From contig OX597823.1 in assembly GCA_951406725.2 (NCBI GenBank), positions 93,248,001 to 93,312,000 of the forward strand: 64,000 nucleotides of DNA, in the 5' to 3' direction. The stretch's first letter is position 1, and every line of letters begins with the position of its first letter. Shown here in pieces: positions 1-54,679 of the stretch. The notes beneath the pieces are model-generated. The model did not search any database. It saw only the letters and a program-made list of their open reading frames with translations, and was not told the origin of the DNA. Position numbers and translations under genes: made by a program. Source of the stretch: Octopus vulgaris (Eukaryota).

Positions 1-1321
1 GCTAGAAATCCTCTTACTAATATTTTTAACTAAATTTTTGAATACTATAGGGGGATGGCATGAACCTACATTAATATAACTTAGTCTATCATTGGGCTTC
101 CTATAAGGCTTATAAATATTATTATTAAGATCTAAGGAAACGTCTAAGAAATTGACAACCGTCAGGTTAGTGTCTATAGTTATACTAAGTCCGAAGTGTT
201 TCATTAACTGGATAATATCCTTCCTAAAACGATCTTGTGCTGGTCCATTTGTATTAGCTGTTAAGGCGAGGGCATCATCTTTGTAGATGGCGAAATGTAC
301 GTTAGGGAATGTCTTACTGAAGGTATCTAGGAGAAAGAGTCCAATTAGATCACAGATGCCTGCCCCATCATATGAACCCATGCTCACATCGAAAGCGCCC
401 TCCGTGTCGGTGTTTTTTACCCACTTTGCATTCTCACTGAAAAGTAATGTCTTTCTAGCATGGAAGATTATATCCTTATCATTGGTACTAATTTCTATGA
501 AGTCACTAGCGAAGATTAGGGCTTTATCTAGCAGTTCTTTAGAGATAGAGGCATAAAAATCAACAATATCGAATTGTGTAAACCTCGCTTTTTTCTTATT
601 CTTAATAGCTTTAAACCAGTCTACGACTTCTATACTATTGGACCATTGCACTAGCCTAGTATCGGTCTTAATTTTCGTATTTATTTTATCTAAAATTTCT
701 TTGCTAATAATCCCTAGTTCTGACTTGGCTGGATTGATAAGCCTACATTTAGGATTGGAAAGGAAGTTTTCTTTGTGGTCTTTAATAGTAATAAAGGCCT
801 CTTTTTGGGGGAGGGTTTCTATTTTTTTATCTAATTTAAGTTTAGCGGCGATGACGCTAGCTTCTTTATTAATTTCGTTATATGTCTGTGCCCTAGCCTT
901 AGTATAATTATTAATGATGCTGTTGTGTAAGAGTTGTGTGTATTTGCTGTTATCTACCAGGTATAAGTTCTTGGTTTTATCCGAAAAAAGTGCTTTTTTC
1001 TTGGAGCTTTTTTATATGATCAATATCTTTTTTCAATTTATGTTGGAAATTGTTAAAAGACTTACGAAACTTTATTTTGCTCATGATCTTCAGCAGGTCC
1101 GCTTCGAAATCTTCCAAGCCTTTAATCCTAGGAGGGAATTTTTTGGATTTTATCCGATAGCAAATGTTTTCCTTGGTGTTCGCTTCTGTGTCAAAAAAGA
1201 AAGCCTTCCATCTCATACGCTTAATTACATCAGTAATTTTTTGCAGAAGTTTCTTAGAGTAAAAATTCTTTGATGGGATCGGTATATTTTTCATAGAATA
1301 ATCTATGTGATATGCGTCCAT
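1..1321 (-). pseudogene. Second tandem PLE ORF copy, frameshifted, continuing past the window edge
   Basis: Near-identical to 3911-2592. The T run at ~1008-1013 has 6 T versus 5 T at 3599-3603, giving the truncated 114-aa ORF 977-1321. Confidence 0.85.
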
Positions 1322-1526
1322 ATTAGATTCTTTTGTTTGTGAGAGTCCTCAACCGATGTTAGGCGATAATCCCAAAAAGGTCGTATTAGCTCTTAGTTGA
1401 GAATAACGTCGTCCGGGAGGTGATTTATTGATAAAACGGTAAGATAACAAAAGAAAGAAAGAGACCTCAATATTATGTAAATAGAGGAAATTTATCTATA
1501 CAATATGTTACATTACTCGGTAGTCA

Positions 1527-1589
1527 AGATAAAACTCTGAGTTTCAGATGCCGAAGTGGAAATCCACAACACCATCTCTTCGGTTATCT
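1527..1589 (-). ncRNA. Variant hammerhead ribozyme, inter-copy pLTR
   Basis: Reverse complement of 5991-6053. Confidence 0.7.
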
Positions 1590-50265: not shown

Positions 50266-53102
50266 TTTATTATTATTTTTTTTTAAAGGCAGTGAGTTGG
50301 CAGAATGGTTAGAGCATCGGAATAAATGACTTGCAGTATATTACTGTTGTCAGTGTCAATAAAATAAAGAAACGTTGGCAGAAACGTCAGCCCGCCGGAT
50401 GAAATGCATAGCAGTATTTCGACAGGCTTTATGTTCTGAGTTCAAATACCGCCTAGGTCTACTTTCTCTTTCATATTTCCGTGGTCGATAAATTAAGTAC
50501 TGGTTGCGTGCTAGGGTCGATCTAATCGACTGACCCCTCCCCAGCAATTTCGTGCCTTGTGCTTAGAAGAGAAAATAATTAAATAAGGTTCCACTAAAGT
50601 GTTGGCGTCGACGGTTTCATTTAATGCATTCGCCCACACTGCCCGACCGGGTGCCGAGATAAGAATCCAAGGAGGCAAAATGTCAGAATCATTAATGCGT
50701 CGGAAGAAAAACCTTACACTAAATTATCCGGATCTATGTATTCTTAGTTCAAATCCTACCAAAGCCAACCTTGACTTTTAATTTTTATAATCGATAAAAT
50801 AAAATATTAGCCAAGAACTGGGCCGTTGTTATCGATTACTTGTCCCACTTCAAAATTACTGGCTTTTCGCCCTAATCAAGACCAATTATAGGTAATTAAA
50901 GTTGATATTCTTTCGTTACTGTCAGGTAATTTAGAGAGATATCTATGCAATTTCAAATTTAAGTGTTAAGACTTTGATGCGTATCAACATTTGTCAAATA
51001 CATCAAAAGTGTTTTCTAAGTATTTCTTGGCACAGGAATTCCTTGAAGAGGGGGAAGACCTTGGACCGAATCTTAAACAATACGGACAATACAGCTTCAT
51101 CTCTATGTCGATTTCTTGGGACCATGCTGACTGAAGAATGAAATTTCACACACATAAACACACGCACACACATACATATATACACATATAAAAGTGTGTG
51201 TGTGTGAGATATATAAAGGAACGTAGCTTATTCCCGATCGCTAGATCGTAGGTTCCGTTCCCGGGCCGGGCTGCATGTTGTGTTCTTGAGCAAAACACAT
51301 TTTACGTTGTTCTGCAGATTGCAAAGTGTTAGAATCGTTGGCGCGTCGGCAGAGCTGCTTTATTGTATATTTTTAGGTCCTCTGCATTCTGAGTTCAAAT
51401 CCCACCTGCTTCGAGACGAGAAACTACTTCGCATTCTGAGTTCAAATCCCACCTGCTTCGAGACGAGAAACTACTTCAGTATTCATTCGACGTCTTGACA
51501 TGGATGGCTGTAGTTCCAATTGTCTACATAACGGAAACAGGGTATGGTACAGACCATCCCAGATCGCATAGAGAGTGCTGGAGAAGGTTCACAAGCACAG
51601 GACCTGCCAAAGAGCAGACCATGACTTGGTATCTGTACGCATGTGAAATTACATTCAGCTTCAGACGGTCAGTCGTTTCGGGTATTTTCACACGAATCAA
51701 TAGGGAGAAGAGAAACTGAGATTGGAAAATAAATTTATCGTAAAAATTATCAAAAAAATGATGGTTTAATATCAACTGGAATCTAAGCGCAGGCAAGGCT
51801 GTGTGGTTAAAGAGTTTGCTTTATAACCACCTGTTTCAGGTTCAGCCCTAATCTACGGCCTTTGAGGGTGCTCCATTCTATTAAAAATTCGAATCGACCA
51901 ATGGTTTGGGAGTAAAATCGAAAGACAGAAAACGTCGTATATAGGAGCGCATGTGTGAGGAGTATGTTTGTGTGTGCGTATGTGCGGTGTGTGGGTGTGT
52001 GGGTGGGTGTGGTATGTGTGTGGTGTGTGTGTGTGTGTGTTCGCAACGCTTGACACAAGTTGTTGCTTTCGTTACCAAACTTTAGCTTCCTAGTTTGGCA
52101 ACGAGGCTTGGTAGAACACTGTACGTAGATACATGCATCGGAGGGGAGATTCTACAATGAATTCCTTCCAAACTTAAAATTGTCAAAGATTAAAAAAGAA
52201 ATATTTGGAATAACAAAACTAAAATATAGCAAAATAATTCGAGACTTTCAACAGAAAATGGGCCCCAAAACCAGAGTTGTATGTTGGATTGGCAATAAAT
52301 TAAGAATAAATTTTACATTCCAAAATGACAAATTTAAAAGAAAATATATTTCGCAATCAAAATTCATTTATTGAATAATTATTTTATAACAGTTAAAATC
52401 CAATTCGCATTCAACACACTTGAAATCTCGAGTTCCTTTCCAAAAGACTCGAATATCCGAGCTTTTCTTTTCAGGTTGTGTCACGCATGTCAATTAGACG
52501 TTGCAGCAAATTTGTTTTAATAAATTTGACAAAACATTTTGCAATTAGATTTTAAAATGCCCACTTTTACTCCCCGATTCAAGGTTACTTTCTTTAATTT
52601 TGTTGTTTTTTATTCTACAACGATTAGTCCTTCACAAACATGTTGCATACTTCACAAATGCCGCGCAGAATTACATTTAGTAACTAATGTATATTGCAGT
52701 ATTTAGCAAAGTATAGACTCGACTTCAGCATACGAGTATACGCGTGTGTGTGTGTTTGTGTGTGTGCGTGTATGTATTTGTATATGAATTGACATTTGAC
52801 ATCAAAAATGTTCACCTCGAATCCTTTCCGTATAAGTATTAAAATTCAATGTGAATAGCAAGTGAAGTGAAGTTTTCCTGTATTTATTGATTGTTTTTGG
52901 AAATAACAAAAACAAGCAACACAGGGAACGGAGAGTAGAGCAGAAACAGCTGCAAGCCAAGTACATTACATAATTACTTGTCTTTGTCATATATATGTAT
53001 ATTTACAAACATACACATTTATATATATATATATATATGTGTGTGTGTGTGTATGTGTGTGTGTGTGTGCATCTTAGTGTGTGTGTGCGCGTATACCAGA
53101 TA

Positions 53103-53640
53103 GTACAGGTCGTGTTAAAATGTTTCCGGACTGTTTCGGTAGCGTGCCAACAGATGACAGCACATAGATTCGTGCGCACGTAGAACAAGCGGTGACCTCT
53201 GTGAGGCATCTTGCCGAGTTGCATCGTTGTGTTTACTCCGCAAATTGTGAAATTTGAGTTATTGTGATCGTGTAAATTCTGGAGTCTGTGATTTTTGTCA
53301 CGGAAAGGAAGTCGTAACAAAGACCCAACGTAAAATTTTGCGTTAAACTTGTGAAGTCTGCTACAGAGATATTGAGCATCTGTCAGCAACTTTACAGCAT
53401 CGAGGCAATAACTCGTTCGCATTATTTCAAGGAGAGGTGCTTCAAATGTGGAAGAACTTCCTGGAAGAGGATGAGCAATCTGGAAGACCTGCCACAAGCG
53501 TCACCCACCTCGGAAATGGGGGGAGGGGTCATTAGATTACGCTTCAGGATCGTCTGTGGACAATTAACGCCGTTTTAATGTGCTTGAGACAGGACATTCA
53601 GCGAAAGCAACCGGATCTGCGGGGTGCGGCTAATTGGATT
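53103..53640 (+). pseudogene. Mariner transposon 5' end with transposase HTH remnant
   Basis: QRPNVKFCVKLVKSATEILS..QQLY..EA...FKCGRTS/LEEDEQSGRP; tacaggtcgtgttaaaa TIR-like start. Confidence 0.7.
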
Positions 53641-54679
53641 ATTTGCCCTGGATAAAACTGGACTCTTTCTATGATGAGAAATCACTCCAATACACCACGA
53701 CGTTTGAACCTTTTGAATCTTTTGAACTTTTCTAAAGTTTTTTGTACTTTCTATGGGATGACGTCATCAGCTGGGGAGCTGAATGGAACTTGGACTAACC
53801 AGAAAGTGGAAGGAGCAGGGGTGACACGTGCGCAGGCACAGCAGCAGCGGACTTTTTCGATCGAGATAGCCGAGCGAGTCGGATATGCGAGCTCGTTGTT
53901 AAGGTTGTGGAAAAGCAGCTGCTATTTCTAGTGTTCGGGTCGGGCAACGTGGAAGGGTACATTACCACTGGGGAGGTCTCACTCGAGCGAAGAGAAGGTA
54001 GGTGTCCTTAAGCGGTTGAGCAGTGGCAGCCTCGCATACAGCACACTTTCTGCCTTTTCCTATTGTTGTTTCTCTCTATCCGCACTCGTTCCATGATAGA
54101 TCGCTATTTTCTCTCCCAGTGTATTTCTGTGTCCCTCTCAGTAGGCTCGAAACGTAAAAGACTTTCTCACTTCCCGAGCATTAAACTAATATATATGTTT
54201 GTTGTTTAAACATCCGCCTTCGTCTTTTTGTAGATTCTCACTATATTTGCTTTTACCCGGTTTCACTTTTGTATGTTCCTAATTTAGATTGTTCCTTGCT
54301 GTTCATTACCACGCTATCTCTACATTAAATACCTATTTGTAGCTTTGAAAACAATATATTTAAATATTTAAATAATTCTATTAATAGGTTTTAATTAGTC
54401 TTGTTGAACTGATCCCTATTTAAGCCCCTATTATTACTTTTATTTGCATATATTTGCTTCCTTTTCATTCTTATTTATTTATGTTAAACACTTTGTGTCT
54501 TTACATGAGCTTCTTAAAATATGTACTTCGGTAACTTCCCAAGGGAACGCTGTGTATCTGAAATCTTCATTTGTTGTCCAATAGTTCTTTATTGTTTTTA
54601 TTAGTCTAGCTAAATAATGAATCTTTTTAGGGGTGAAATGTTATATTATGTAAGCCTTTATTCATTTATTTATTTTCAA

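Follow-up and report, generated by a model that had tools for sequence, protein, structure and literature searches.

How Penelope-like elements (PLEs) make tandem and inverted insertions, and what moves the non-coding hammerhead ribozyme repeats of animals known as retrozymes, have been described as open questions (PMC8557442, PMC7229834), and a 64,000-nucleotide (nt) stretch of the Octopus vulgaris genome (contig OX597823.1, positions 93,248,001 to 93,312,000; hereafter the window) raises both. The window, which is microsatellite-rich with 35% GC and belongs to an assembly of 2.8 Gb in 227 contigs, carries a coding PLE (family P), non-coding tandem repeats of three hammerhead families (A, B, and C), and further repeats with hammerhead motifs (Table 1). 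An initial annotation of the window had proposed a helper/satellite community, in which an autonomous PLE is accompanied by parasitic hammerhead RNAs that share (TA)n targets and one insertion layout. Alongside a young Hydra-clade PLE and truncated ends of other PLEs, the window has non-coding hammerhead repeats (A, B, C, and probably G), which we consider likely to have been copied into (TA)n by a Hydra-type enzyme that probably primes reverse transcription from both cut strands at two fixed sites of one RNA.

This reading is carried first by the ends of the insertions. The genome copies examined comprise 36 A, 22 B, 27 C, and 29 P insertions, of which 25, 14, 21, and 14, respectively, are two-armed, with two blocks joined head to head, the rest being single-armed. 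Each family shows two fixed 3' ends, a short and a long one, with a spacing of 127 nt in A, 98 nt in B, 101 nt in C, and 67 nt in P. All 60 two-armed copies that were classed (21 A, 14 B, 17 C, and 8 P) combine one short and one long end, as does the window's own PLE insertion; the count excludes five two-armed copies in which one end is odd and nine in which an end lies outside the locus. The P and C queries favour long-end copies but leave the partner arm free. Among seven pairs found in 800 kb of unselected genome, six were of the short-plus-long type, the seventh ended 13 nt off the long end, and none had two ends alike. The head-to-head layout that the initial annotation had described for four insertions is present in each of them, and five more two-armed insertions (three of family D, one of family F, and an older PLE relative) were found; its claim that the longer, more-than-unit-length block points left failed, since the left arm is the longer one in no more than 15 of 45 copies, and both B arms exceed one unit.

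A second line of evidence comes from the targets. TA-rich sequence follows 149 of 177 arm 3' ends, compared with 2.5% of random positions, and only 2 of 40 ends of other window repeats adjoin (TA)4+; for family P, 32 of 35 3' ends lie in (TA)n. Free 5' ends are TA-flanked in 19 of 34 cases, which indicates that the TA tract predates the insertion. Both the (TA)n location of outer ends and the exploitation of TA microsatellites, as initially proposed, are thus borne out. A target-site duplication would be hidden within (TA)n, and a look-up of empty alleles and host exons gave no informative joint, as contigs break at the TA tract. CCCT before TA runs was considered as a signal and rejected for want of genome-wide enrichment (2.4 vs. 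3.3%).

Family P, by the sequence criteria of Craig 2021 (PMC8557442), is a young PLE of the Hydra clade. Its unit of under 3 kb has a single frame with a reverse transcriptase (RT) followed by a C-terminal GIY-YIG domain, in which RWK (residue 37), DKT (114, in place of DKG), YKDD (346), CxCX5C (557), IIY/YVG (576/596), CxxC (660), and CxH (691) can be recognised, while GxKF/Y and CCHH are absent and no cysteine occurs between residues 571 and 650. Pfam gave no RT match for this frame and a weak GIY-YIG match, on the inverted copy, that is below the cut-off (E 0.0087). The insertion extends 1,099 nt to the left of the window and ends there too in (TA)n; its arms overlap by 7 nt at their junction. 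In the putative P hammerhead, which has a U4C core, the predicted cut is 40 nt away from the short end and 107 nt away from the long one, upstream of both; this position near the 3' end fits the Hydra-type layout. A protein search of the genome with P found 68 places of near-equal score, most with an open 717-codon frame like the window's; the 30 copies compared are 98.7-100% identical to the window copy, and the family is similar to A in age. A search of public proteins gave 876 relatives, of which the 120 listed are 41-52% identical, none of them named. In the left tandem copy, the frame shifts near residue 110 (around position 1000, minus strand), while the middle copy is open. Older, broken Hydra-like copies that are 27-52% identical to P were seen at five further loci (L038:3244-3995 and 126-569, L036, L152, L247, and L252), and a family A insertion lies inside the one at L038.

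P resembles Hydra-clade PLEs such as Hydra-1_Obim in its size below 3 kb, single frame, RWK, DKT, and CxCX5C, lack of CCHH, hammerhead near the 3' end, (TA)n target, and partial tandem with an inverted truncated copy and a tail at one end (PMC8557442), and its N-terminal half resembles that of Hydra-1_Obim by eye. It differs as a separate family, with a U4C core and a tail of 67 rather than 30-40 nt. Hydra elements are known to target (TA)n (Craig 2021, PMC8557442), and inverted truncated copies with the tail at one end have been described (Craig 2021; Arkhipova 2013).

Families A, B, and C fit animal non-LTR (long terminal repeat) retrozymes, as judged from their genome copies, with cleavage and circles predicted. 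Their longest ATG frames are 52, 93, and 67 amino acids (aa), respectively, their GC content is 32-35%, and each unit has one type I hammerhead, with the same core sequence in most unit readings. Folded as circles, the A, B, and C monomers are more stable than 25 shuffles (z -7.0, -5.2, and -6.0, respectively), and about 40 scored loci for each family show 97-100% identity over many chromosomes. They share with described retrozymes the non-coding, low-GC tandem structure, the type I hammerhead, self-pairing, and the presence of PLEs in the genome (PMC7229834; 10.64898/2026.07.22.740005). In a look-up for expression, no RNA data set was among the holders listed; contigs from sequencing runs guessed to be RNA cover unit A, with start, end, and strand not shown. 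In those over positions 46920-47700, A>G changes on the hammerhead strand account for 8 of the 14 listed differences, and about 125-138 genomic A units lack 6 of the 8. This is no more than a hint at A-to-I editing, the runs being from other individuals without matched DNA. Between two TA runs, at 23950-23973 (plus strand), lies a 24-nt match to a part of family C close to its short end.

We propose that an endonuclease would nick both strands within (TA)n and that a protein dimer would initiate two cDNAs on the RNA, the first from the short site and the second from the long site, which are 67-180 nt apart; by eye, each start site is preceded by a hairpin and an AU-rich stretch. Both cDNAs would stop at variable places and join head to head, mostly over an overlap of 0-15 nt, while failure of one priming may yield a single-armed copy. 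In LINE-1 (long interspersed nuclear element 1) twin priming, both target strands likewise prime cDNA synthesis on one RNA, giving rise to an inversion. Unlike in LINE-1 twin priming, the start sites here do not vary, both arms can be copies of one region and can be longer than a unit, and a poly(A) end is absent.

The closest biochemical counterpart is the Anolis Poseidon element PAc, for which Frangieh 2024 (PMC11167929) reported two internal start sites in vitro that correspond to the tail ends, cutting and extension of both target strands, an AT-rich target, and a predicted dimer. In that work, the start site did not differ between strands, and pairing of the two sites within one event was not addressed; the present data add the one-of-each rule for copies in the genome and extend it to non-coding passengers. 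The rule, which coding and non-coding families have in common, ties the in vitro start sites to genomic inversions, and the compact open 708-aa frames together with the 0.5-kb passenger units are ready reagents for a test. Only tentatively do we go further and suggest that PLE integration by a dimer is obligatorily paired, and that hammerhead circles of a lineage of their own mimic the double signal and are copied, in a viroid-like manner, by rolling reverse transcription; if this is true, there would be non-coding hammerhead RNA circles with shared motifs of their own, which are not simply pieces of a current helper.

The two arms of an insertion appear to share one template. In 127 of 131 comparisons at common polymorphic sites they agree, compared with 78 expected, and over 42 insertions (three with internal rearrangements dropped) the divergence between arms was lower within than between insertions (0.10 vs. 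0.66% for A, 0.31 vs. 1.06% for B, and 0.70 vs. 1.49% for C). Furthermore, for 11 private variants, all units of the two arms carry the variant (9 units in one case). The predicted cut site is crossed in 81 of 90 arms, the unit junction keeps its sequence in 297 of 307 unit readings (with overlapping loci entering this count repeatedly), and no clustering of 5' ends is seen at the predicted cut (8 of 186; A 3/61, B 1/36, C 4/48, and P 0/41, in a sample that favours long arms); a cut linear monomer is hence an unlikely template. A religated circle and an uncut multimer both fit, and the fixed private variants modestly favour the circle. For the retrozymes, a monomer circle cut by the ribozyme and religated may thus be slightly the better candidate than a linear multimer, in line with earlier proposals of circular templates and PLE helpers by Cervera & de la Peña (2014, PMC4209133; 2020, PMC7229834).

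Several observations weigh against our reading as a whole, in addition to the copies left out of the count of ends. The loci are best matches to full-unit queries, in which long arms are over-represented, and arm lengths are uncorrelated (rho -0.11, p 0.45, n 45). Families A, B, and C have no nucleotide homology to P, to the second young Hydra family Q described below, or to 30 older Hydra-like loci, and a motif common to B, C, G, and two other families is absent from the P and Q loci. As isolated fragments, the B, C, F, G, and P hammerhead motifs are not more stable in folding than shuffles, 43 private variants are limited to a subset of the units (later mutation would give such variants), the P and C hammerhead cores are variants, and the lack of a 5'-end pile-up means that there is no sign of in vivo cleavage in these genome copies. 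Finally, hammerhead mutants of PAc still insert in vitro (PMC11167929).

The last three of these points speak for the strongest rival, in which the same enzyme uses the same two start sites but copies an uncut linear tandem transcript, the hammerheads being passengers or acting later. The anole mutants inserted normally, and no reads ended at the cut site (PMC11167929). On the other hand, a linear template would require either a bottleneck of one unit or a homogeneous source array that escaped sampling to explain the 11 private variants fixed in both arms, one array exceeds 10 units, and whole monomers fold far better as circles than shuffles do (z -5 to -7). We regard this rival as a real possibility, with a chance of about one third.

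It is less probable, and in our view unlikely, that insertion extends TA tracts or gives rise to new ones and that the elements affect host transcripts, by cleaving them or through double-stranded RNA, as had also been suggested. TA runs beside element ends are indeed longer than others (median 26 vs. 14 nt), with 11 of 25 runs of at least 30 nt there, but longer tracts are also larger targets, so that target choice alone can explain the difference, and the free 5' ends are TA-flanked as well. The inverted arms, which reach 1.6 kb and are 99-100% complementary, would form hairpin RNA if transcribed through.

A further rival, in which the inverted arm arises by self-priming or fold-back, as proposed for rotifer Penelope elements, without a second target-primed start, appears improbable. 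Some junctions come close to palindromes, the coordinates on either side being similar, Arkhipova 2013 takes head-to-head palindromes as a sign of self-priming, and fold-back would also give variants common to both arms. However, the arms of several copies are non-nested, each having sequence that the other lacks (family F, the D insertions at 25655 and 27744, the relic at 46734, and 4 of 7 pairs in the unselected 800 kb), which excludes fold-back for those copies; the second arm stops at a fixed site, either arm can be longer (the short-end arm in 24 of 45), and the one-short-one-long rule itself argues against fold-back copying. That A, B, and C are local satellites or were moved by LINEs or DNA transposons, with incidental TA flanks in a TA-rich genome, is very improbable given copies of 97-100% identity on many chromosomes, the PLE-type two-ended, head-to-head footprint with variable 5' truncation, and the rarity of TA at control repeat ends, even though the window has 68 TA runs of at least 10 nt, one Tc1-like element is also TA-flanked, and A, B, and C lack terminal homology to a PLE.

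Having the integration footprint of P, families A, B, and C support a helper/satellite relation at the level of the enzyme class, while a single community around P is not supported: comparisons of A, B, C, F, and G with P gave no significant terminal similarity (best E 0.03-0.5, in low-complexity sequence). The hammerhead community is real, with at least two young Hydra enzymes, P and Q, and P is one candidate helper of A, B, and C among at least two, less probably than not the one in use. Several of the repeats initially described as parasitic RNAs are truncated ends of other autonomous PLEs: D matches the autonomous family Q, and E1 is the 3' end of another coding PLE. A 12-nt motif upstream of the short end occurs in B, C, G, and two other non-coding families (loci L301-L310 and L321-L330), and an 8-nt motif that is absent from P occurs in the tails of A, B, and C; these motifs, which were picked after looking, may possibly reflect common ancestry or a binding site.

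PLEs have been proposed as retrozyme helpers before (Cervera & de la Peña 2020, PMC7229834; Li 2026, 10.64898/2026.07.22.740005), and Xenopus retrozymes have been linked to PLE ends (Li, Clavereau & Pollet 2026, 10.64898/2026.07.22.740005); 24 of 57 Xenopus families match such an end, whereas none of the PLE ends found here is matched by A, B, or C. The available portions of these two retrozyme texts do not report TA targeting, arms joined head to head, or a pair of fixed ends, and that of PMC7229834 has no occurrence of "inverted" or "microsatellite". Our literature search found no two-armed or TA-targeted retrozymes, and no octopus hammerheads beyond Craig 2021, though the supplements of 10.64898/2026.07.22.740005 may bear on this; "hammerhead" and "ribozyme" do not occur in the available text of a 2026 octopus repeat annotation (PMC13282606), which lists 31 recently active PLE families in Octopus vulgaris. 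The elements are of known kinds, with a regular footprint that is not described for retrozymes in the literature searched.

Table 1. Positions of the hammerhead-bearing elements and related features in the window
Feature	Position	Strand	Description
Family P, left arm	1..4249	-	tandem array of 2.07 units (2,590 nt each); short end in (TA)n
RT + GIY-YIG frame	1785..3911	-	708 aa, open
Family P hammerheads	1583-, 4173-, 5997+		palindromic stem III
Family P, right arm	4243..6151	+	0.74 unit, 5'-truncated; long end in (TA)n
Family P hammerhead	5990..6052	+	family-fixed CCGAAGA core (U4C)
E1	18007..18204	-	5'-truncated PLE 3' end; minimal hammerhead; family-fixed CUGUAGA core
Further E1 copies	21954-22018 and 54108-54228		
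Partial tandem	20341..21340	-	207-nt direct repeat, 93%; minimal hammerhead at 20602
E2	23080..23272	+	single-ended minimal-hammerhead repeat in (TA)n
Further E2 copy	24188-24373	-	
E2 relative	37560-37760		
Family D	23311..23935		two-armed, short end left, long right; 78% over 275 nt to family Q 3' end
Family D	25655..25969		two-armed, long end left, short right; arms without common sequence
Family D	27744..28098		two-armed, short end left, long right; inside older PLE relic
Family G	24438..24697	-	older (83-85%) hammerhead repeat
Family G hammerhead	24649	-	palindromic stem III
Family C, left arm	28345..28891	-	1.14 units of 483 nt; long end (101-nt tail); U3-variant hammerhead 28637
Family C, right arm	28889..29212	+	0.67 unit; short end; hammerhead 29020
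Family C hammerheads	28637-, 29020+		palindromic stem III
Family B, left arm	40201..40808	-	1.09 units of 560 nt; short end; hammerhead 40438
Family B, right arm	40801..41357	+	1.01 units; long end (98-nt tail); hammerhead 41026
Family B hammerheads	40438-, 41026+		palindromic stem III
Family F	41376..41755		two-armed; short arm with hammerhead 41486-; long arm almost only 100-nt tail
Family F hammerhead	41486	-	palindromic stem III
Older PLE relative (84%)	46734..46835		about 25-nt long-end arm and short arm with half a hammerhead
Family A	46911..49598	-	536-nt unit in five tandem copies, each with a canonical hammerhead; short end
Family A hammerheads (five)	47141 to 49284	-	palindromic stem III
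Family A, inverted arm	49596..49685	+	long end (127-nt tail), in (TA)n

The hammerheads themselves are predicted self-cutting RNA motifs, of which 18, in about ten families, were found across the window, which agrees with the initial estimate of about 15 from at least six families. The exact family cores gave 14 motifs with a 4-bp palindromic stem III, and a second scan gave four minimal "GAAACG" motifs (18129-, 20602-, 23147+, and 37630+); 10 of the 18 have a fully canonical CUGANGA core. With a strict descriptor tuned on the window's own motifs, the window gave 13 matches, 30 shuffles gave 0, and the unselected 800 kb gave 11, so that hammerhead density in the window is several-fold above average; a looser scan found 9 motifs with a score of at least 12, compared with 0.07 in 15 shuffles. 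A first strict scan overlooked most motifs because their stem II loops are long, and no hammerhead is among the 150 of 270 Rfam matches listed, the top ones being microsatellite or hairpin artefacts. By rough extrapolation from 11 motifs per 800 kb, the genome may have some tens of thousands of hammerheads, and any effect on host RNA would therefore be widespread.

Variant cores (U4C in P, C3U in C, and A6U in E1) are the usual states of their families rather than decay. Of the motifs initially listed as decayed, the one near 18100 has the usual CUGUAGA core of its family; the motif at 46760 belongs to a truncated PLE relative, and that at 53693 is doubtful, lacking GAAA. The B, C, F, and P motifs combine a mismatch or wobble at the base of stem II with a short stem III, features that are listed in the Hydra table of Craig 2021 (PMC8557442), and in isolation only the family A motif clearly folds better than shuffles (z -5.0). 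A second hammerhead-like match in family A (47020), with G-U pairs and a two-mismatch core, was taken as chance.

The second young Hydra family, Q, was found via a divergent Hydra-like fragment and examined at six places. It has a 5.57-kb unit, a frame of 955 aa that includes Asn-rich insertions, a hammerhead whose stem II is long, an AT-rich 3' region of about 2.6 kb, and a tail of 172-179 nt, with copies at least 99.4% identical; in unit size, frame, and tail it differs from Hydra-1_Obim-type elements (PMC8557442). Q loci include L402:613-3481 and L406 (G000:C2, C1), and two-armed Q copies lie at L402, L403, and L404. Comparison of D with the Q lineage showed 75% identity over 210 nt, 199 vs. 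about 203 nt from cut to short end, and a tail of 179 vs. about 172 nt; by this likeness, the three D insertions are 3' ends of an autonomous Hydra PLE of the Q lineage.

For E1, sequence common to two loci lies upstream of the repeat and includes, in one of them, a C-terminal frame without a Pfam match that we take, from its motifs, to be GIY-YIG-like, so that E1 would be the end of a further PLE. No head-to-head pair was found among 25 E1/E2 segments, and 48 other loci have one end only. E1, E2, and the motif at 20602 resemble the minimal PLE hammerheads of PMC4209133 in having an extra base before stem II and no real stem III and in occurring as dispersed single truncated copies; the family-fixed A6U core of E1 sets it apart. 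Family F, with more than 650 nt of AT-rich upstream sequence and no tandem seen, is probably a PLE 3' end; a Naiad origin was considered, and a coding link was not found. Genome copies of G show, by eye, tandem junctions and two ends. Directly upstream of G lies a decayed LINE 3' fragment (24694-25630, minus strand) that contains a tandem repeat of 26 nt (25036-25214); the idea that G is the relic's 3' end was rejected, since both occur apart elsewhere.

An old PLE relic of another clade, with RT and thumb fragments, lies at 26520-27720 (minus strand) beside a D insertion that sits in a TA tract, and Pfam gave no match for the relic frames. The repeats used as controls for TA flanks, which are very abundant, short, and not TA-flanked, lie at 30709-30913, 33869-33995, 38328-38721, 39387-39719, and 42299-42702, with further ones at 50376-50579, 60346-60524, 62279-62745, and 63410-63739. 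Finally, two elements with terminal inverted repeats, of about 480 nt at 78% (14703-15993) and of 219 nt at 90% (16376-17952, in (TA)n), are presumably Tc1/mariner-like, judging from their terminal pattern.

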